In this document: positions 15,951-54,740 of the stretch, one piece after another
Numbering within the stretch: the first letter of the stretch is position 1
Layout: every line of letters starts with the position of its first letter
From: an uncultured Chloroflexia bacterium
Lineage (GTDB): Bacteria; Chloroflexota; Limnocylindria; Limnocylindrales; CSP1-4
Assembly: GCA_963806175.1 (NCBI GenBank)
Contig: CAWDXA010000011.1
Span: 1,170,782 to 1,234,781 of the forward strand
Reading direction: 5' to 3'
DNA: 64,000 bases
The notes under the pieces: generated by a model
Seen by the model: only the letters and a program-made list of their open reading frames with translations
Databases searched by the model: none
What the model was told of the DNA's origin: nothing
Position numbers and translations under genes: made by a program

Positions 15951-18439
15951 ATGCGCTACGGCCAGTTCGACGACGATCGGCGCGAGTACGTCATCACCCG
16001 CCCCGACACGCCGCTGCCGTGGATCAACTACCTGGGCAGCGAGGACTACTTCGGGATCATCTCGAACACGGCCGGCGGCTACTCGTTCTACCGGGACGCG
16101 CGGCTGCGGCGGCTGACCCGGTACCGCTACAACAACGCGCCGCTCGATCTCGGCGGACGCTACCTGTATCTCCGCGACGACGACAGCGGGGCGTACTGGA
16201 GCCCTACCTGGCAGCCGACCCTCGGCGACCTCGACGACTACGAGTGCCGCCACGGCATGGGCTACACGATCATCGCCTCGCGGCACCAGGGGATCCGCGC
16301 CGAGGTCACGCTACTTCGTGCCGCCGGGCGAGACGCTCGAGATCTGGCGAGCCCGGGTCACCAACGAACGGCCGACGCCCGCCCGGCTGTCGCTGTTCGG
16401 CACGATCGAGTTCTGCCTGTGGGACGCGCAGGACGACGCCACCAACTTCCAGCGCAACTACTCGATCGGCGAGGTCGAGGTCGAGGACGGCGTCATCTAC
16501 CACACGACCGAGTACCGCGAGCGGCGCGACCATTTCGCCTACTTCGCCTGCTCCGACCGGTCGGCCGGCTTCGACACCTCGCGCGACGCCTTCCTCGGCC
16601 CGTACCGCGGCTGGGACCGGCCGATCGCCGTCGAGCGTGGCGCGACGTCAGGCTCGATCGCGCACGGCTGGCAGCCGATCGGCGCCCACCACGTCCGGCT
16701 CGAGCTGGGCCCGGGCGAGACGCGCGAGATCGACTTCGTCCTCGGCTACGCCGAGAACCCGGCGGACGCCAAGTTCGATCCGCCCGGCTCGGTCACCGTC
16801 GACAAGCGCGCGGTTCGCCCGGTCATCGCACGCCACCTCGACCCGGTCGCCGATCGACGATGCGTTCGACTGCCTGCGCCGGTCGCTGGGACGACCTGCT
16901 CGGGTCGCTCCAGGTGCGAGACCGGCAACGAGCATCTCGACCGGATGGTCAACATCTGGAACGCCTACCAGTGCATGGTCACGTTCAACCTGTCGCGCTC
17001 GGCCTCGCTGTTCGAGTCCGGGATCGGGCGCGGGATGGGCTTCCGGGACTCGACCCAGGACCTGCTCGGGTTCGTCCACATGGTGCCCGACCGGGCGCGC
17101 CAGCGGATCCTCGACATCGCCGCGACGCAGCTGCCGACCGGCGGCGCCTATCACCAGTACCAGCCGCTGACCAAGCGCGGCAATGACGCGGTCGGCTCGG
17201 GCTTCAACGACGACCCGGCCTGGCTCGTGCTCGCCGTCGCCGCCTACGTCAAGGAGACGGGCGACCTGGCCATCCTCGACGAGCCGGTGCCGTACGACAA
17301 CCAGCCCGGGCACGGAGCGGCCGCTGGACGACCACCTGACCGCGGTCGATCGACTACACGCTCGAGCGCCTCGGTCCGCACGGCCTGCCGCTGATCGGGC
17401 GCGCCGACTGGAACGACTGCCTCAACCTGAACTGCTTCTCCGACACGCCCGGCGAGTCGTTCCAGACGACCCAGAACCGCGACGGCGGTGTCGCCGAGTC
17501 GGTGTTCATCGCCGGGCTGTTCGTGCTGGCGGCCAACGAGCTGGCCACGATCGAGGAGCACCTGGGCGACCCGGCCGAGGCCGCGCCGGCTCCGCGCGGC
17601 GGGCGCCCAGATGGTGGCGGCAGTCGACGACCACGGCTGGGACGGCGAGTGGTTCCGGCGCGCCTACGACTTCTTCGGCGAGCCGATCGGCTCGGCCGCC
17701 AACGACGAGGGGCAGATCTTCATCGAGCCCCAGGGCATCTGCATCCTGGCCGGGATCGGGCTCGACGACGGCCGAGCCATCCGGGCGCTCGCGTCCGTCC
17801 GCGAGCGTCTCGCGACGGCGCACGGGATCGTCCTCCAGCAGCCGGCCTTCTCCGGGCTACCAGCTCCGGCTCGGCGAGATCTCGTCGTACCCGCCCGGCT
17901 ACAAGGAGAACGCCGGGGTCTTCTGCCACACCAACCCGTGGCTGATGATCGCCGAGGCGCTCGCCGGCAACCACGAGGGCGCCCTCGACTACTACCTGCG
18001 GATCAACCCGTCGGCGCGGGAAGACATCTCCGACGTCCACCGCTGCGAGCCGTACGTCTACGCCCAGATGATCGCCGGCCGGGACGCCCCCACCCACGGC
18101 GAGGCGAAGAACTCGTGGCTGACCGGAACCGCCGCCTGGAACTACGTCGCGGCCACCCAGTGGATCGTCGGGATCCGGCCGGAGCTCGACGGCCTGCGGA
18201 TCGACCCGCGCTTCCCGGCCGGCTGGGGGGAGATCGGCATCACGCGCCGGTTCCGCGGCGCAACGTACCGCATCGTGGTCCATCCGCCGGCCTCCACCGG
18301 TTCGGCAGGTGCGGCGGTCGGCCGGCTGGTCGTCGACGGGCAACCGGTCGACGGCAACCTCGCCCCGCTGCCCGCGGCGCCCGGGATCGACATCCACGTC
18401 GACGCGTATCTCGAGGTGCCCGCCGGGGCCCTGACCTGA
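15951..18439 (+). CDS. GH94 cellobiose phosphorylase (several apparent frameshifts)
   Basis: [29 protein letters not shown]; [12 protein letters not shown]; catalytic-loop motif ADWNDCLN; [11 protein letters not shown]; [12 protein letters not shown]; split over at least five ORF pieces. Confidence 0.9.
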
Positions 18440-23850: not shown

Positions 23851-26504
<2,654 letters not shown>

Positions 26505-29476: not shown

Positions 29477-30274
29477 CTAGGAGGCCGGCTCGACCTGGTC
29501 GGCCGGCGGGGCGCTGATCGACACCGACTCGTCCCACTTGGAGAACGTGAGGTCGAAGGTCAGCGAGCCCTGGTCGCCCATCGAGGCGCTCGCCGCGAGA
29601 CCGGCCAGCCGGTTGCTGTCCTTCTCGACCCGGATGGTCAGGCTGAGGCTCGCGGTCCCGAGGTCGATCGGGATCTGGCTGGCGACCGCTCCGCCGCCCC
29701 CGAGGGCGTTGAGCTCGTCGGGCGTGATCTCGATCTTGACCGTGTAGCACTGCGTGCTGCCGCAGGCCACGTCATCGCCCTTGACCGGATCCACGCCCGG
29801 CTGCGAGAGGGCCTCGCCGATGCCGTCCACGAGGCTCTTGCTGTCGGTCGGGTTGACGGGGAGCGAATCCGCGGTCTTCATGCTCTGGAACTTGTCGCCG
29901 GTCAGGGACGACTTGAAATAGGTCGTGCCGTCGACCTGGATCAGTTCGCCGGACAGCCCGAGCAATGCGGGCACGGCGAAGGTGGCGTGGGCGTTCCCGG
30001 CCGTCAGGTCGACGTCGGCCGCGGCCGTCGATCCGGCCAGGGACATGGCGGCGTTGGACCCGCCGGCGCCGCTGAGGTCGGCCTTGATGCTGCCGTCCAG
30101 CGTCGCATCGACGTGGACGCTCTTGGCCGACTGGGCCGTGCGCACGGCGGCAGTCACGATCTCCTTCGGGTCGGTCAGGGCCGGAGCCGAGGCGGAACTG
30201 CAGGCGCTGACGACGATCGACGCGGCGGCCAGCAGGCCGAGCACACGGGCGATGCGACGGGTGGTTGGTGACAT
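29477..30274 (-). CDS. LppX/LprAFG-like lipoprotein
   Basis: ATG at 30274; lipobox VSAC; KSVHV; C-terminal FSKWDESVSISAPPADQV. Confidence 0.75.
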   Translation of the reverse strand: MSPTTRRIARVLGLLAAASIVVSACSSASAPALTDPKEIVTAAVRTAQSAKSVHVDATLDGSIKADLSGAGGSNAAMSLAGSTAAADVDLTAGNAHATFAVPALLGLSGELIQVDGTTYFKSSLTGDKFQSMKTADSLPVNPTDSKSLVDGIGEALSQPGVDPVKGDDVACGSTQCYTVKIEITPDELNALGGGGAVASQIPIDLGTASLSLTIRVEKDSNRLAGLAASASMGDQGSLTFDLTFSKWDESVSISAPPADQVEPAS

Positions 30275-30363
30275 CAGGCTCCCTCGGGCTGCCCGGGCGG
30301 TGGTCCGACCGGGATGATGGATGCGCACAGGGTCCGTTCGTCGGCTGGGTCTGTCAAATAGAC

Positions 30364-30390
30364 GAGCTGGCCCTCGGTGAGGACCAGCTC
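30364..30390 (-). terminator. Hairpin terminator after Flp pilin 1 (copy 1 of a duplicated element)
   Basis: gagctggccctcggtgaggaccagctc, followed on the minus strand by gtctatttg. Confidence 0.75.
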
Positions 30391-30410
30391 CTGCGTGACG
30401 TGCGCCCGTG

Positions 30411-30785
30411 TCAGGCGCAATGGGCGGGCTTTGGCTTCGTGATCCAGGCGTAGCCGGCGGCAGCGCACGTCTTCTTGGTCGTGTAGGCGGAGGCCGGCGT
30501 CCTGGTCGGGGTCGGCATCGGCGTGGGGACGACGGTCGGCGTTGGCGTGGGGACGACGGTCGGCTGCGGGCCGGGCCCGCCGGCCTCAGCGGCTACCGAA
30601 CCCTCGAGGCGATCGCCGATCGAAGACAAGGTGCCGTTGATCTGTCCGCCGAGGTACGAGGTTGCGCCGATCGCCAATACTGCGACCAGCGCAAGGATGA
30701 GTGCGTATTCCCCCAGCCCTTGTCCGGTTTCCGATGGCCGATGGATTTGAGACCCGACGCTAGCGCGCCTGACGGGCCCATGCAT
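30411..30785 (-). CDS. Flp (type IVc) pilin with Pro/Thr linker and C-terminal Cys/Trp module
   Basis: G|QGLGEYALILALVAVLAIGA..LG..I Flp motif; PTVVPTPT repeats; terminal YTTKKTCAAAGYAWITKPKPAHCA. Start codon uncertain. Confidence 0.85.
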   Translation of the reverse strand: MHGPVRRASVGSQIHRPSETGQGLGEYALILALVAVLAIGATSYLGGQINGTLSSIGDRLEGSVAAEAGGPGPQPTVVPTPTPTVVPTPMPTPTRTPASAYTTKKTCAAAGYAWITKPKPAHCA

Positions 30786-30887
30786 AGGCGATGCCCCCGT
30801 GCGGATGATTGCCCCGCCGACGATAGGCATGCACGACCCGTGTCGCCACGGTACGGAAGTCCCGGGTCCCACCGGGGACAAATGAAT

Positions 30888-30914
30888 GAGCTGGCCCTCG
30901 GTGAGGGCCAGCTC
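30888..30914 (-). terminator. Hairpin terminator after Flp pilin 2 (copy 2)
   Basis: gagctggccctcggtgagggccagctc, 26/27 identical to copy 1; minus-strand tail attcatttg. Confidence 0.75.
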
Positions 30915-30968
30915 ATGGTCGGTCTGAGTCCGAGCTGCGATGGCGTCCTACGCGACTGCGCCAGATTA

Positions 30969-31657
30969 CTAGCGACCAGTCCGCAGGCGCGTGCCATCGT
31001 GCCAGTGGCCGTGTCCCAGTACCCGTGGAGGCGGTCGTAGCTCAGGTGTACGGCGTGCCACGTCGGCGTCCCAGTGCCACGTCGGCTGGGCTCGGCGTAG
31101 GCTGAGGACTGCCAGGCGGATGCCGCTGTCAGGTGTCGGCGTCCGAAGCGATCGGCGTCGGCGGGGCGGTTGGCTGCGGGCTGCTGTGCAGTCGCGTTGT
31201 ACCAAAGAAGCCGCAGCGGTGCAGGACCGGCTGAATGGAAGTCGTTCGCACTGGCGGGCACTGCTGTGGCAGTCGCCGTTGTACCAATAGAAGCCGGCAG
31301 CCGTGCAGGACGCGTGCTGTTGAAGTCCTGCGCACTCGGAGCCGCGCAGTAGTCGGGACCGTGGTGGCTATCGTGCCAGATGAAGCCAGCCCCTTGGCAC
31401 GAACTCTGATCGGTGAAGTCGCCAGGCTGCGCAACGGGGCCTGGACCGGGACCGCCCTGGACACCCAGGACGTTGCCGGCGGCTGTTCCGACGTTGGACA
31501 GCACGCCCTTGATCTGGCCACCGAGATACGTGGTTGCCCCGATCGCCAATACTGCGATCAAGGCAATGATGAGTGCGTATTCAACGAGTCCTGCGCCGGT
31601 TTCGAAGAAGCGGCGAGGTCTGGTCTTGGCGCTCGATCTCCTGAGTCGACGGTACAT
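30969..31657 (-). CDS. Flp pilin with repeated Cys/Trp modules (multiple apparent indels; error or pseudogene)
   Basis: RBS GGAGG, ATG at 31657; G|AGLVEYALIIALIAVLAIGA; SCQGAGFIW..YC, then SCTAAGFYWYNGDCHSS repeats read across frames; TAG TAA stops at 30966-30971. Confidence 0.75.
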
Positions 31658-31794
31658 GGGCTTCCCTCCATGCAGTGATGGGCCTGGATCGAGCCACACT
31701 ACTCTGGCGGACCCCGTACCTCAAGGCTAGTACGAAAGTTTCTGAGAACTCCGGTGCCAGCCGACACCGGATGGGCCTGACGCGCGGCAAACGA

Positions 31795-31825
31795 GAAGGG
31801 CCCCCGGTCGAGCCGGGGGCCCTTC
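31795..31825 (-). terminator. Intrinsic terminator of groESL
   Basis: gaagggcccccgg-tcgag-ccgggggcccttc. Confidence 0.85.
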
Positions 31826-31850
31826 GCAGGTGTTGCGGACCGGGATCGGA

Positions 31851-34090
<2,240 letters not shown>

Positions 34091-35678: not shown

Positions 35679-37338
35679 TTACGGAACCTCGGCTTCGGTG
35701 TCGAGACGCGGGAAGAGCGGCTCGGGAGCCGTCACGTGGCCGTCCGTACCGGGTCCGCTCCCCCATTCGAGCAGCGCCAGGATCGCCGGCCCGCCGTTGC
35801 CGTCCGGGCCGTACGGGTAGTCGTAGCCGAGCTGGGCCAGGACCCGTGGCGCGGTCCCCGGCAGGAACGGGGCCCCGGCCAGGCCGAGGAGCCGGCAGGC
35901 TTCGAGCAGGTCGCCGAGGACGCCCCGGAGGCGTTCGCCGGCGGCCGTGTCGCCGGCCTTGGCCAGCTTGGCCAGTTCCCACGGCTTCTCCAGGTCGACC
36001 AGCCGGTTGGCGGCGCCCACGAACCCCCACAGCGCCGCCAGCCCTTCGTGCAGCAGGCAGGCCTCGATCGCCGCGCGGTAGGCCGGCAGCGCCAGCCGCC
36101 AGGCGTCGCGCAACGAGCCGGCGCCGGTCGGAGCGGGCCGCTCGCCCGCCAGGTACCGGTTGGTCATCGAGACCGTGCGGTTGACCAGGTTCCCGAAGTC
36201 GTTGGCGAGGTCGGCGTTGTAGCGCCGGACAAAGGAGTCCCAGCTCACCTCGGCATCGCGATCGAAGGGGACCTCACGCAGGGCGACGTACCGCGCGCCG
36301 TCCTGGCCGAACGCGGTCACGAAGTCGTTCGGGTCGAGGAAGTTGCCGCGGCTCTTGCTCATCCGCTCGCCGCCGGCGGCCAGGAGCCAGCCGTGAACCC
36401 AGACCTGGCGTGGCGCCTCCAGCCCGGCGCTCCACAGCATGGCCGGCCAGAAGATCGTGTGGAACCGGGCGATGTCCTTGCCGATGACGTGGAGGTCGGC
36501 CGGCCAGAAGCGATCGAACGGCGGCCCGGTCGTCGGGGAAGCCAGCCCCGGTGATGTAGTTGATCAGGGCGTCGAACCAGACGTAGATCTTGCCGGCCTC
36601 GGGATCCCAGGTGCCGTCCTCGCGGAGCGACGACTCGCCGTTCTCGGCGACCGGGAACGGGATGCCCCAGTCGCCGGGCGTCCGCTCGCGACTGATCGAG
36701 ATGTCCTCCAGCCCGCCGCGGATGAACCCGAGCATCTCGTTGCGCCGGTGGTCGGGCTGGACGAACTCCGGGTGGTCGGCGAAGTGGCGTTCGAGCCGCT
36801 CCTGGTAGGCCGACAGGCGGAAGAACCAGTTCCGCTCGGTCAGCCATTGGAGCGGCACGTCGGGATGGTTCGGGCAGATCGTGCCGCGGGCCGTCTCGAC
36901 CACGTCGGTCGCGTTGCGGAAGCCCTCGTTCGGGCAGTACCAGCCCTGGTAGGTCCCCGGATAGATGTCGCCGTTGGCGTGCGCGCGCCTGACCATCTCC
37001 TGGGCGGACCGGAGGTGATCCGGGTCGGTCGTCCGGATGAACCGGTCCGGGCTGATCCCGAGTGCGGCCTCGGCCGCCTTGAAGAAGCCCACCTTCTCGT
37101 CGACGAACTCGCGCGGCGAGCGGCCCTCGTCCACCGCGCTCTGGGCGATGTTGATCGAGTGCTCGTCGGTGCCGGTCAGGAACCGCGTGTCGTCGCCGAG
37201 CATGCGGTGCCAGCGCGCGATGACGTCGGCGCCGATCACCTCGTAGAGCGTGTGCAGCCCCGGCTTGTTGTTGGCGTAGGCAATCGAGGTCGTGAGGTAG
37301 AAGCGAGGGCGATCGTGTCGATCGCGCTGGTCGGTCAT
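35679..37338 (-). CDS. metG: Methionine--tRNA ligase (frameshift near 36520)
   Basis: FYLTTSIAYAN; LTGTDEH; YVWFDALINY; IGKDIARFH; MSKSRGN; LANDFGNL. Confidence 0.95.
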
Positions 37339-37486
37339 GGGACGGCGATGGTAGCAGCGGCGAGGGGTCGCGAGGCGGCTGGCGCGATGACGGCGGCCGG
37401 CCACGCGGGACTATCGGACGCCCTGCCTGACCGATTGGTCCGTCGACGGGCCGCACCAGCCGTCGGACCATTGACGCGCGACCGCG

Positions 37487-39415
37487 ATGGCCGGTCGTGT
37501 CCCCTCCAGAGTGAGCGTCTCCTTGGCCTTCGAAGCGCAATCGATGCGCAAGCCGATCCGCCGTCGAATGATGCTGTCCGTGACGGCCGGCATCGTGCTG
37601 CTCGCCGTGCTCGGAACGGCGGTGATCCTCCTGATCGCCTCGTCCCATCAGGCGTTTGCCGGACAGCGGACGGCGATGGACGGCCTGTCGGATACCCGCC
37701 GCCAGCTGATCCAGGCCGTCTTCCGCGAGGAGACTGCCGTCCTCGATTACGAGCTCACCCATGCCCAACGGGCATCCGGGGAATTCGAGGCCGCGGCGAG
37801 AGACTCGGCGGCCTACCAGTCCCGGCTCGCGGACATCGCCAGCGACGAACCGCCGCTCGCCGCCCTCGTCGCCAAGGTCTCGACGCTAGTCACCGGCTGG
37901 CACCAGGAGTGGGCCGAACCGCTCGTCAGGTCACTCCGTGCCGGAGCGCCAATTCCATCCACCGGGCCACTCGCCCCGGAAGAGGGCGAGCGCCGGTTCC
38001 AACTGGTCGAAGGAGCGTTCGCCGAGCTGGATCGATCGATCGAGACGAGGCGGGCGACGCTCATGGCGGCGCAGGATTCGGACACGCAGCGGCTCGTCCT
38101 CGTGATCGGGATGGCCATCCTCGTGTTCGGTGCGACACTCCTGGCCCTCGGCGTCTGGCTCCTGCGGACGATCAGCGCACCACTGGCGCGGCTGAGCCAG
38201 ACAGCGGCCAACCTCGTTCGCGGGTCGTCCGTCAGCTTCCGGGCAGAACGCCCCGATGAGATCGGTACGCTCGCCGAGGTCCTCGAGCAGCTGCGCTGTG
38301 ACGTGGAACGACGCTACGCCGCCGCGCGCTCCGACGCAGACCGCTCGGCGACCTACAGCAAGCTCGCCGAGCTGATCTCGTTCTCGTCCACGGAGGAGGA
38401 CCTGGTCGGCGCCGCGATCCAGGCGATCGGTCTCCTGACCTCGATCCCGAGCGGCGACGTCGAGCTTGCGAACCCGTCGCAGACGGGCCTGGTCTACGCT
38501 GCGGCCTGGGGCGAGCCGGCACTCGATCTCGGCCGGCCCGTGCCGATCGATCGGATGGACCGCTGCCCCGGCATCCGCCGCGCGTCGGCGTACCTCGACG
38601 CGGACGTCGAGGACGAGCTCGCGATCCATTGCCCGGCCCAGCGCGCGACAAGCGGAGCCGCAGCCTGCGTGCCGATGGTCGCCCTCGGCCAGGTGATGGG
38701 CGTCATCCACCTTTCCGTTCCGGACGCACAGCTCTCCGGCGAAGCCGTCACGGACGTGACCCGCGTGGCCGAGCAGGTCGCCATCGCGCTGGCAAACGCT
38801 CGGCTGATGAAGACGCTCGAAGGGCTGGCCATGACCGACCCATTGACCGGTCTGCCCAACGCCCGCTTCTTCGACTCGTTCCTCGAGCAGCAGCTCCTCG
38901 CCACCCGGCGAGATGCCGAGCCGCTCGGCCTGATCATGATGGACATCGACCAGTTCAAGGGGTTCAACGATACGCACGGCCATCCATCCGGCGACGAAGC
39001 CCTTCGCGTGTTCAGCCGCGTGGTCCGCCAGGTCCTGCGCGCATCGGACGTGGTCGCCCGGTACGGCGGCGAGGAATTCATCGTGGCCCTGCCCGGGGCC
39101 AACCAGGAGGAGACCCGGGTCGTCGCCGAGAAGCTCCGAGCGGCCGTCGAGGACATGGTCGTCGAGATCGGCCCGGGCCGGTACGGCCGCATCACGATCT
39201 CGCTGGGAGTCGTCGCGACGGACGACCGGCCCGTTGACCGGAGGGGCCTCGTCGCGCTGGCCGATGCCGCGCTGTATCAGGCCAAGGAGCGCGGCCGGAA
39301 CCGGGTCGAGGTGGCGCCGACCTCCGAACACGAACTCGTTACGACCAACCGACGCCGCCACGACAAGACGACCCCGTTCCCGGTCCCAGACCCCGCCCGG
39401 AAGCGTTCGGCCTGA
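37487..39415 (+). CDS. Membrane sensor diguanylate cyclase (CHASE3-like, HAMP, GAF, GGDEF)
   Basis: Two TM helices; DEIGTLA HAMP; AIALANARL; TDPLTGLPN; RASD..RYGGEEF. Start may be 37544. Confidence 0.92.
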   Translation: MAGRVPSRVSVSLAFEAQSMRKPIRRRMMLSVTAGIVLLAVLGTAVILLIASSHQAFAGQRTAMDGLSDTRRQLIQAVFREETAVLDYELTHAQRASGEFEAAARDSAAYQSRLADIASDEPPLAALVAKVSTLVTGWHQEWAEPLVRSLRAGAPIPSTGPLAPEEGERRFQLVEGAFAELDRSIETRRATLMAAQDSDTQRLVLVIGMAILVFGATLLALGVWLLRTISAPLARLSQTAANLVRGSSVSFRAERPDEIGTLAEVLEQLRCDVERRYAAARSDADRSATYSKLAELISFSSTEEDLVGAAIQAIGLLTSIPSGDVELANPSQTGLVYAAAWGEPALDLGRPVPIDRMDRCPGIRRASAYLDADVEDELAIHCPAQRATSGAAACVPMVALGQVMGVIHLSVPDAQLSGEAVTDVTRVAEQVAIALANARLMKTLEGLAMTDPLTGLPNARFFDSFLEQQLLATRRDAEPLGLIMMDIDQFKGFNDTHGHPSGDEALRVFSRVVRQVLRASDVVARYGGEEFIVALPGANQEETRVVAEKLRAAVEDMVVEIGPGRYGRITISLGVVATDDRPVDRRGLVALADAALYQAKERGRNRVEVAPTSEHELVTTNRRRHDKTTPFPVPDPARKRSA

Positions 39416-52917: not shown

Positions 52918-53024
52918 GGGCGACTTCGCCGGAACCGCGGCCGGCGGGCGCGGTACGACCGGCGCCGGGGGGTCAGTACCTTCAGGCGAGCCGGGCAGGG
53001 ACCGTCCCCGACTAGCCTTGGCAG

Positions 53025-54740
53025 GTGATGCGCCTCCTCCGTTTCCTGGCGCTCGCGGTTCCGGTCGCGCTCGGGATCCTGCTGTTGGGCCAGCCGACCG
53101 CATTCTCGTGGCTCGGCGACAGCGAGCGCTCCGTCGTCGCCGCGCTCGCGGCGGCCACGATCGGCGTGTACCTGACCGTTGGCGTGCTCGAGCTGCGGAC
53201 CAATTTGCGCCTGCGCCGGCTGGTCAAGGCGGCCGAGAGGATCGCCGCGGGTGACTACACGGTCGAAGTGTCGAAGTACGGGAGCACCCGTCTCGAGGCG
53301 CGCATGGCGAACGCCATCAACCGGATCTCGGCAGCGCTCGCGGACACCTACGACCGGGCGACGATCGATCGGCTGACCGGCGTCTTCAATCGGCAGGCCC
53401 TCCTGGCCGAGCTGTTCGCCGAAGTGGAGCGGGCGGCACGCTACGATCGGCCCCTGTCGGTGGCGTTCGTCGACATCGACCACTTCAAGGTCGTCAACGA
53501 CACCCACGGCCACGGCGCCGGCGACATCGTCCTCCGCGGCGTCGCCCAGGTCCTTGCCGCCAACCTGCGTGCCAGCGACCTGCTCGGTCGGTATGGCGGC
53601 GAGGAATTCATGCTGATCCTGACCGAGACCCCGGTCGAGGAAGGCGCCGTCCTGGCCGAGAAGCTTCGCTCGCTCGTCGAACGAGAACGGTTCGTCACCG
53701 ACGCGGGGCAGAGCCTGTCGGTCACGATCTCGATCGGGATCGTCGGCGGGTTCGGCGGGCAATTGCGAATGGAAGCCCTGGTCCGCGACGCGGACGCCGC
53801 GATGTACTCAGCCAAGTCGCTCGGACGGAACCAGATCTATGTCTTCGCCGAGCCAAACGACGACTCGCGCGTCCCCAGGGCGCCAATCTCGGCGATCGGG
53901 CGGGCCCGGGCCGTCGACATCGGGCGACGCGCGCGCGAGGCGGCGACCGCTGCCCTGCTCGACGTCGTCATTTCCCTTCCACAGTACCGGGGGCGCCCGT
54001 CCGCGGTCATCACGACCATCGTCGATTCGATGGCCCGTTCGCTCCAACTGCCCGACGCCGAGGTCGAACGGATCCGCATCGCGGCCCTGCTGCACGACAT
54101 CGGCAAGCTCGCGCTCCCCGAGGAGGTTCTGGACAAGCATTCGCCGCTCACGTCGGCGGAGTGGCGGAGCGTCGTCCAGCATCCCCGCATCGGCCAGGTC
54201 ATCCTCGAGCAGGCGGCCGCGCTCAAGGATGCCATCCCGATCATCCTGCACCATCACGAGCGGTTCGCCGGCCACGGCTACCCGTATGGGTTGCGGGCCA
54301 CCGACATCCCGCTGGGAGCGCGGATCGTGGCGATCGCCGACGCCTACGACGCCATGGTCAACGACCGGCCGTACAAGCCCGCACTGAGCCACCAGGCCGC
54401 CCTCGACGAGCTGCGCCTCCACTCCGGCACGCAGTTCGATCCCGAGCTCGTCACCCTGTTCTGCGAGCTGTTCGCGACGGCCCCGCCGGCACCCGATCCG
54501 GCGATGCTGGCGCGGGGCATGGCCGTGACCGAGACTGCCGATCGGCGGGTGAGGACGCACGCGGCGACGGCCGACGACCACCGGCGACGCGCGACACGAC
54601 GCGCCCAACCCGGTCCGCGGCCGATGGCACCCGCGGGGGACGGGACCATGGAGCCCGGACGCCGGCCAGCGGCCGAGCGCGCCGGCCTGAAGCGACCGGC
54701 CGACCCCGACAGCCGCGGTCGCGGTCGCGCCGCCGGCTGA
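53025..54740 (+). CDS. Membrane HAMP-GGDEF-HD-GYP hybrid protein
   Basis: Two TMs; HAMP; DRLTGVFN; RASD..RYGGEEF; LLHDIGK; HHERFAGHGYP; IADAYDAM. Confidence 0.93.
   Translation: MMRLLRFLALAVPVALGILLLGQPTAFSWLGDSERSVVAALAAATIGVYLTVGVLELRTNLRLRRLVKAAERIAAGDYTVEVSKYGSTRLEARMANAINRISAALADTYDRATIDRLTGVFNRQALLAELFAEVERAARYDRPLSVAFVDIDHFKVVNDTHGHGAGDIVLRGVAQVLAANLRASDLLGRYGGEEFMLILTETPVEEGAVLAEKLRSLVERERFVTDAGQSLSVTISIGIVGGFGGQLRMEALVRDADAAMYSAKSLGRNQIYVFAEPNDDSRVPRAPISAIGRARAVDIGRRAREAATAALLDVVISLPQYRGRPSAVITTIVDSMARSLQLPDAEVERIRIAALLHDIGKLALPEEVLDKHSPLTSAEWRSVVQHPRIGQVILEQAAALKDAIPIILHHHERFAGHGYPYGLRATDIPLGARIVAIADAYDAMVNDRPYKPALSHQAALDELRLHSGTQFDPELVTLFCELFATAPPAPDPAMLARGMAVTETADRRVRTHAATADDHRRRATRRAQPGPRPMAPAGDGTMEPGRRPAAERAGLKRPADPDSRGRGRAAG

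Follow-up and report, generated by a model that had tools for sequence, protein, structure and literature searches.

The subject of this analysis is a stretch of 64,000 nucleotides (the window; G000:C11:1170782–1234781) from the 3.29-Mb metagenome-assembled genome (MAG) G000 of an uncultured soil bacterium (14 contigs, one of 1.57 Mb; 76% completeness; 71% GC). The gene content of the window is mainly housekeeping (purine synthesis, gatCAB, ligA, pcrA, groES/groEL, metG, and ssb). Two Flp-like prepilin genes, referred to here as pilin 1 and pilin 2, were identified on the minus strand, flanked by groEL (end at 31851) and by a gene encoding an LppX/LprAFG-like lipoprotein (29477–30328). Modular pilins that combine an Flp carrier with an uncatalogued mini-domain are a real feature of this locus. 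A core of 99 nt is 83% identical between the two genes, indicating that they are paralogues; coordinates are collected in Table 1.

Both genes carry the Flp prepilin signature that an earlier note on this DNA had read in them, i.e., a Gly followed by four residues, Glu-Tyr, and a hydrophobic helix, with the processing motifs ETG↓QGLGEY in pilin 1 and ETG↓AGLVEY in pilin 2 (the arrow marks the putative cleavage site). Both N-termini matched Flp_Fap (PF04964), pilin 1 with an E-value of 1.4e-5 (25.2–26.6 bits in hmmscan and the genome scan) and pilin 2 with an E-value of 3.3e-7 (28.4–30.4 bits in hmmscan and 32.3 bits in the genome scan, against a cut-off of 32.2). Aligned with the four ordinary Flp pilins (56–60 aa) encoded in the tad locus on contig C14 of the same genome, the window pilins correspond column for column in leader, G+4+EY signature, and helix, with equal helix length; the C-terminal extensions begin two residues before the ends of the ordinary pilins. 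The window pair has the Flp_Fap profile match and processing motif of an Flp pilin and departs from the bare-helix plan: mature pilin 1 has 103 residues and mature pilin 2, by homology, ~210 residues with folded C-terminal modules, compared with the ~40–60 aa, helix only, of a small Flp pilin. Matches to PHROGs and NCBIfam on the Pro/Thr linker were rejected as low complexity. An extended Flp pilin was also seen in genome G055 (L043:1351–1824); its 60-aa Lys/Pro/Thr-rich tail has no cysteines, so that extensions of the Flp helix are not limited to the module described below.

Pilin 1 is intact and consists of a leader (residues 1–21), a helix (residues 22–68, beginning with QGLGEYALILALVAVLAIGA), a Gly/Pro/Thr linker of 31 aa (residues 69–99), and a single Cys-Trp module (residues 100–124); YTTKKTCAAAGYAWITKPKPAHC represents its C-terminus. 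An AlphaFold 2 (AF2) model of pilin 1 (126-aa query with two extra N-terminal residues) has a helix at 24–69, a linker with a predicted local distance difference test score (pLDDT) of ~50, and a module with a pLDDT of 87–89 that comprises a short helix and two short strands, laid out as in the modules modeled for the relative P0025. A hidden Markov model (HMM) of the module matched the module of pilin 1 with an E-value of 1.4e-4, this module having been part of the training set.

Up to its first module, pilin 2 follows the plan of pilin 1, via a GGPGPGP hinge, and FTDQSSCQGAGFIWHDSHHGPDYC shares the frame of the pilin 2 start. Module 2 was matched by P0024, P0025, and the pilin of genome G156 in tblastn (E-values of 8e-6 to 3e-4) and by a three-module profile built without the window sequence (alignment A2; E-value of 4.6e-9). 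Module 3 differs from module 2 chiefly by 1-nt length differences rather than by substitutions. All module peptides quoted in the earlier note were recovered in the minus-strand translation, and of the modules claimed for pilin 2 (at least three), three are recognizable, although only module 1 is in frame, module 2 being in frame f2 and module 3 broken. The sequence that follows had been called degraded; instead, it is homologous to the second linker of intact relatives (a Pro/Thr stretch in frame f1) and to their conserved C-terminal Trp/His domain. The end pieces can be assigned to this domain because they are homologous to the intact C-termini of P0054 and P0055. The database open reading frame (ORF) for pilin 2 (P0056, 354 aa, 30593–31657, minus strand) was rejected as a spurious frame-0 read-through, a high-GC artefact that overlaps pilin 1 and is mostly not real protein sequence.

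Homologues of pilin 1 (16 metagenomic proteins among 234 candidates, E-values of 4e-36 to 4e-16, 101–181 aa) show that the module is a conserved part of these pilins: 14 of the 16 end in a T/S-C-x-A-A-[GN]-[YH]-x-W-...-C module behind a linker of varying length, while P0002 has two modules of another flavor and P0005 looks aberrant. One homologue bears the NCBI label "Chloroflexota bacterium"; neighbors in the ESM Atlas labelled Candidatus Dormiibacterota scored below 0.9 (best 0.77–0.82) and serve as leads only. Intact modular Flp pilins carry one module (the 14 homologues) to five (Table 1), which supports the proposal in the earlier note of a class of Flp pilins with variable module number. 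P0025, P0052, P0054, and P0055 have in common the second Pro-rich linker and the C-terminal Cys-bounded Trp/His domain. P0025 and P0055, both from ENA contigs of 2,128 bp, may be a tandem pair like that of the window. Wider scans of genomes and metagenome contigs with P0054 yielded a single non-pilin protein with the module and otherwise ordinary Flp N-termini.

The module occurs well beyond pilins. A phmmer search with the five-module tail of the G156 pilin against 1.84 billion representatives found 34 proteins with E-values ≤0.001 (seven with E-values ≤1e-10), comprising one from the cluster of the query itself, the Flp pilin P0025, two false positives, and otherwise non-pilins; P0018 (SprB repeats) and P0041 were rejected as module proteins, as neither contained a module by pattern or HMM. 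The non-pilin module proteins (175–1140 aa, one of them labelled Candidatus Paceibacterota) contain 2–20 tandem modules, and in many of them the C-terminus is a hydrophobic anchor followed by a basic tail. In two of these proteins, P0034 and P0044, a beta-rich N-terminal domain precedes two-Cys modules very similar to module 1 of pilin 2 (DFTD..SC..AGF.WW); their C-terminus, Pro-Gly-Phe and a hydrophobic tail, may resemble the archaeal PGF-CTERM sorting signal.

In its full form, the module has four cysteines, C0 to C3, of which C0 opens the spacer, C2 directly precedes the invariant Trp, and C3 is followed by His. Among 177 modules (P0002 and P0019–P0050), C0 and C2 were both present in 116, both absent in 61, and present singly in none, a count from which no probability was drawn because the members are related; the all-or-none pattern fits two nested disulfides, C0–C2 and C1–C3. 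The pilin modules represent the two-Cys form, in which only C1–C3 is present and the position of C2 is taken by Phe or Tyr. In an AF2 model of a three-module stretch of P0025 (21-row alignment; mean pLDDT of 93.9, predicted template modeling score of 0.75), each module of ~25–30 aa has a short helix followed by a beta-hairpin. In keeping with the plan of modular pilins, the pilin 1 model places an independently folded module behind a linker, and the modules of the P0025 stretch are likewise modeled with confidence.

The module is not covered by any model in Pfam-A or NCBIfam, and PDB sequences yielded 0 matches to the three-module profile at E-values up to 1; the architecture, like the module, is absent from these databases. 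Foldseek found nothing in PDB for the module model at E-values ≤0.001. VIA-align against 48,161 PDB representatives found only four chains with Z ≥2, all of them PSI domains (plexin A4, plexin A2, and Met); these alignments are weak (Z of 2.1–2.5; root-mean-square deviation of 2.2–2.9 Å over 34–37 residues). The PSI profile (PF01437) did not match G156 or P0002 at E-values up to 10, nor the 34 module proteins at E-values up to 0.001. The modeled likeness to PSI domains may be taken as a weak structural lead and not as membership. PSI domains have a Cys-x-Trp-Cys-like core; like them, the module appears to be a small disulfide-rich extracellular fold, but it has far fewer cysteines (two or four).

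Profile searches of the window yielded no T2SSE, T2SSF, TadE, or A24-peptidase match, in line with the absence of tad and prepilin peptidase genes reported in the earlier note. Machinery encoded elsewhere, as that note had supposed, was located in the same genome, where Tad assembly genes and a single A24 prepilin peptidase are distributed over contigs C14, C9, C7, and C3 (Table 1).

Table 1. Features of the pilin locus (window coordinates), intact modular relatives, and export-related genes on other contigs of G000.
Feature	Location	Strand	Size	Details
Pilin 1 gene	30411..30785	-	124 aa + stop	Intact; ATG at 30785, stop at 30413–30411
Pilin 1 leader	30723..30785	-	21 aa	Basic; ends in ETG (Gly of the G↓QGLGEY motif); from sequence and alignment with four canonical Flp pilins
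Pilin 1 C-terminal module	30414..30488	-		AYTTKKTC-AAAGYAW-ITKPKPAH-C-A; Cys pair 16 residues apart; kept in 14/16 homologues
Pilin 2 gene (by homology)	30969..31657	-		Ends in frame f2 with the TAG of a TAG TAA double stop (30971–30966); several frames after 31320
Shine-Dalgarno-like GGAGGG	31664..31669	-		6 nt upstream of the pilin 2 ATG; from sequence
Pilin 2 module 1	31346..31420	-		DFTDQSSC...W...YC; frame of the start codon
Pilin 2 module 2	31260..31310	-		SCTAAGFYWYNGDCHSS; frame f2
Pilin 2 module 3	31188..31226	-		Near DNA copy of module 2; direct repeat D4, spacing 84 nt
Pilin 2 remnants of Trp/His-rich C-terminal domain	30969..31083	-		TWHWD..., GHWHDG...; frames f2 and f0; frameshift-aware alignment to P0054 and P0055
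Terminator-like hairpin behind pilin 1	30364..30390	-		12-bp stem, 3-nt loop, T-rich tail
Terminator-like hairpin behind pilin 2	30886..30916	-		Perfect 14-bp stem, 3-nt loop, T-rich tail
Intact modular Flp pilin	G156 L023:1498-2181		228 aa	Five modules
Intact modular Flp pilin	P0025		246 aa	Four modules
Intact modular Flp pilin	P0054		246 aa	Three modules
Intact modular Flp pilin	P0052		213 aa	Three modules
Intact modular Flp pilin	P0055		225 aa	Two modules
Intact modular Flp pilin	P0002		181 aa	Two modules
Tad-related genes	Contig C14			HisKA_3 kinase, four flp genes, RcpC/CpaB, receiver-domain ORF cut by the contig end
Tad-related genes	Contig C9			T2SSE ATPase (TadA-type), two T2SSF proteins
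Tad-related genes	Contig C7			Four TadE-family ORFs over the cut-off, one weaker
Tad-related genes	Contig C3			One A24 prepilin peptidase (the only one in the genome), second T2SSE ATPase
Thiol-oxidation genes	Contig C5			VKOR adjoining a DsbA-like thioredoxin

On balance, we lean toward the view that the locus contains tandem genes for modular Flp (type IVc/Tad) prepilins, the modules of which are probably displayed on the pilus surface. The hydrophobic helix would insert each protein into the membrane, where, judging from the G↓xGLxEY motif, the single A24 prepilin peptidase would cut after the Gly, and the mature pilin would be taken up by a Tad machine encoded on the other contigs. The C-terminal Gly/Pro/Thr linker would point outward and hold the module or modules clear of the filament or, should the proteins be low-abundance subunits, at the filament tip; a C1–C3 disulfide, which the DsbA-like/VKOR pair could form, would lock each module. 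The most likely role would be ligand or surface binding, with the modules displayed as adhesins in the manner of modular type IVa pilins.

Several points weigh against this view. The pilin pair sits outside any tad locus, and pilin 1 scores below the Pfam cut-off of 32.2 bits. The conserved aromatic residues may simply represent the core of a very small fold rather than a binding surface, and bulky C-terminal arrays might not pack along a shaft, which would favor a tip or non-filament role. The breaks in the reading frame of pilin 2 (at least nine in ~300 nt) are far denser than those in ligA (at least two in ~2 kb). Contigs from public reads (six soil metagenome runs with small shares, each ≤17% of sampled words) span both Flp cores and pilin 1, but not 30963–31420, the part that would discriminate between assembly artefact and decay of pilin 2.

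The frame breaks bear on a first alternative, namely that pilin 2 is a genuine decaying pseudogene, that only pilin 1 is functional, and that the cassette is a relic of horizontal acquisition. We consider this possible but doubtful. A frameshift-aware alignment of pilin 2 to P0054 contains nine frame changes between 31318 and 31012 (4–12 with other guides), much denser than elsewhere in the window, where many genes are intact, including the 2.7-kb pcrA and the 1.6-kb groEL; this high local density is the main argument for real decay. Pilin 2 also has a low G+C content at third codon positions (GC3; 0.71) and no orthologue by the module profile in 31 same-genus genomes. However, essential single-copy genes of the same window are broken as well, indicating that the assembly makes indels: metG (35682–37410, minus strand) is split over two overlapping open frames that cover profile positions 2–259 and 271–390, most likely through an assembly indel, as no second full copy of methionyl-tRNA synthetase was found in the genome, and ligA (24332–26240, minus strand) lies in at least three pieces (adenylation positions 2–58 and 53–253, and a separate ZBD-HhH-BRCT ORF). 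An ORF for a GH94 glycoside phosphorylase (16117–17391, plus strand), which ends after position 154 of a 420-position catalytic-domain profile, is probably frame-broken too.

The pattern of damage within pilin 2 also speaks against decay. The 1-nt length differences of module 3 are a signature of consensus errors, and all pieces up to the C-terminal domain and the double stop before the hairpin are recognizable. A relative of pilin 2 on a 168-kb contig, P0053 (258 aa), alternates good modules with Arg/Gln/Leu-rich stretches typical of out-of-frame high-GC translation, i.e., damage of the same kind as in the window, whereas family members on contigs of 1.7–3.8 kb are intact. The makeup of the MAG, 14 contigs with one of 1.57 Mb yet only 76% completeness, lends further support to an artefact. 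Taken together, it is quite likely that the pilin 2 frame was broken by assembly error rather than by true decay. The earlier note had named a loss of the extensions on polishing as a refutation; that of pilin 2 is already broken as assembled, and its restoration is the more likely outcome of polishing. If so, this locus illustrates how, in a noisy MAG from long reads, a modular pilin of ~230 aa can end up in the databases as a spurious protein of 354 aa. Run X3 gave a 123-nt contig in which a stretch of 28 nt recurs at a distance of 93 nt, which only weakly hints at in-frame arrays in a relative. In G156, the ligA gene upstream of the five-module pilin (L023:1–1398) has its adenylation/OB part in frame +2 and its BRCT end in frame +1; the G156 assembly may thus carry indels too.

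Display along the shaft is not the only role conceivable for modular Flp pilins. They could be low-abundance minor or adapter pilins at the tip or base of the filament, with modules acting at the tip only, an arrangement that we regard as unlikely. It has precedents in the Flp "adapter" pilins KilK and KilO and the tip complexes of Tad-like pili, as described in PMC12075869, and modular pilins are expected to be tip-exposed according to PMC12075869 and PMC8179133. However, the TadE/F/G genes are not nearby but on contig C7, and the flexible 31-aa linker would also permit display along the shaft. It is less probable still that the Flp-type class III signal serves only processing and membrane anchoring or release, and that the proteins, instead of forming filaments, are secreted or sit on the cell surface. 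The genes are orphans, each with its own terminator, the same module occurs on many membrane-anchored non-pilin proteins, and arrays as long as the five modules of G156 seem bulky for every shaft subunit; on the other hand, the helix has the length of the canonical Flp pilins of the genome and is very similar to them, including the Glu-Tyr pair, the 99-nt core is 83% identical between the paralogues, and no sign of another export route was seen. A chance resemblance or an annotation artefact of high GC content is highly improbable and, for pilin 1 and the N-terminal third of pilin 2, is refuted: although P0056 is indeed mostly a spurious open frame, homologues with E-values down to 4e-36 keep the module, the window-free profile matches module 2, and the AF2 models are confident.

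The view of the pair as modular Flp pilins sets them apart from the systems described to date. Tad pili lack globular domains according to PMC10710030 and PMC11067988; mature PilA of Caulobacter crescentus is a 45-residue protein that lacks a globular domain (PMC10710030). Like Flp/Fap pilins (PF04964, e.g., C. crescentus PilA), the window pilins have a leader ending in Gly, a Glu-Tyr motif, and a single long hydrophobic/amphipathic helix; unlike them, they carry a linker and folded disulfide modules and are encoded outside a tad locus. The idea of a grafted-module pilin is already in print for type IVa pilins: in modular type IV pilins such as PilB and PilC of Streptococcus sanguinis, which were surveyed via IPR012902, a pilin module is joined to a grafted functional module, and these type IVa-like proteins have a complete globular pilin domain, their modules being large and already catalogued, e.g., vWA or lectin, as described in PMC8179133 (Raynaud et al. 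2021), the main text of which does not contain the term "Tad". The window proteins likewise join an N-terminal pilin part with a class III signal by a linker to a presented module, but their carrier is a bare Flp helix with an Flp-type signal rather than IPR012902, and their cargo is an uncatalogued repeat of 25–30 aa. PMC12075869 credits minor pilins of the TadE/F/G type and Kil "Tip" complexes with the functional tips of Tad-like pili. Both those tips and the window pilins would offer a route to functional surface parts on a Tad pilus, and small Flp adapter pilins occur in the Kil system; however, the tip proteins have a TadE-family fold, whereas the window proteins match Flp_Fap and not TadE.

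Type IVa pilins have a C-terminal Cys...Cys loop, the D-region, which is exposed on the pilus, takes part in binding, and belongs to the globular head; the window module is instead a separate tethered mini-domain. In the literature other than subscription journals and supplements, we found neither the module motif nor Flp pilins bearing folded modules at the C-terminus described.

An Flp subunit with tethered folded heads, if confirmed, would provide a second route to binding specificity of Tad pili beside TadE/F/G tips, and would make a natural display scaffold based on a minimal pilin. The module itself is a compact new family common to pilins and large surface proteins of uncultured microbes, so that a profile of it would annotate many "hypothetical" proteins. 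More tentatively, it may represent an undescribed and widely spread family of extracellular mini-domains, possibly minimal PSI-like, that is grafted onto Flp helices by cassette insertion and could give the smooth Tad filament a brush-like coat of tethered binding heads. Between one and five heads were seen, and gain or loss of repeat units of ~84–93 nt would change this number, giving strain-level variation in adhesion or phage recognition. In this reading, the family has a two-disulfide and a one-disulfide form.

The distribution of the modular form is sporadic. The N-terminus and module 1 of pilin 2 had Flp-like matches in 134 of 151 family genomes (a tally that includes G121 and G177), and only in G156 and G173 did matches reach into the module region. 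The G156 tail matched two of the 151 genomes, G156 itself and G000, and the three-module profile, the reach of which excludes single-module forms such as that of G173, matched the same two among 401 family genomes (49 genera) and none of the 31 same-genus genomes. In G000, the module HMM matched this locus only (next best E-value of 0.72); because the window modules were in the training set, only the absence of other matches is informative. In five of five same-genus genomes (L064–L068), the gene order is groEL-X-lipoprotein-pcrA, without an Flp gene, where X is a conserved 127-aa membrane protein with two or three predicted helices and a Pro-rich tail; a search of G000, at 76% completeness, did not reveal X. 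GC3 is 0.79 in pilin 1 and 0.71 in pilin 2, compared with 0.92–0.95 in neighboring genes. The low GC3, the sporadic spread, and the different gene at the site suggest that the pair is an accessory cassette that took the place of another small gene.

The pair looks like a tandem in which each gene is terminated separately. A terminator scan at the locus found four sites where 0.6 were expected, and groEL has its own hairpin. A 27-nt hairpin is present in only two copies in G000 at ≤4 mismatches, both behind the pilin genes. A similar hairpin (4 mismatches) lies in G156, which belongs to another genus, at L023:2305–2331, ~120 nt behind the related modular pilin gene. Because it is nearly identical behind modular pilins of two genera and found nowhere else in G000, this hairpin may travel with the cassette. 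No promoter was found at the locus by a scan for the sigma-70 consensus, which is uninformative for this lineage, and an Rfam search of 30200–32000 yielded no riboswitch and two sub-threshold matches, both on the groEL terminator hairpin. The window also encodes two c-di-GMP signaling proteins less than 25 kb from the pilin genes (37475–39412 and 53016–54737, plus strand), one with HAMP-GGDEF and the other with GGDEF and an HD-GYP-type HD domain.

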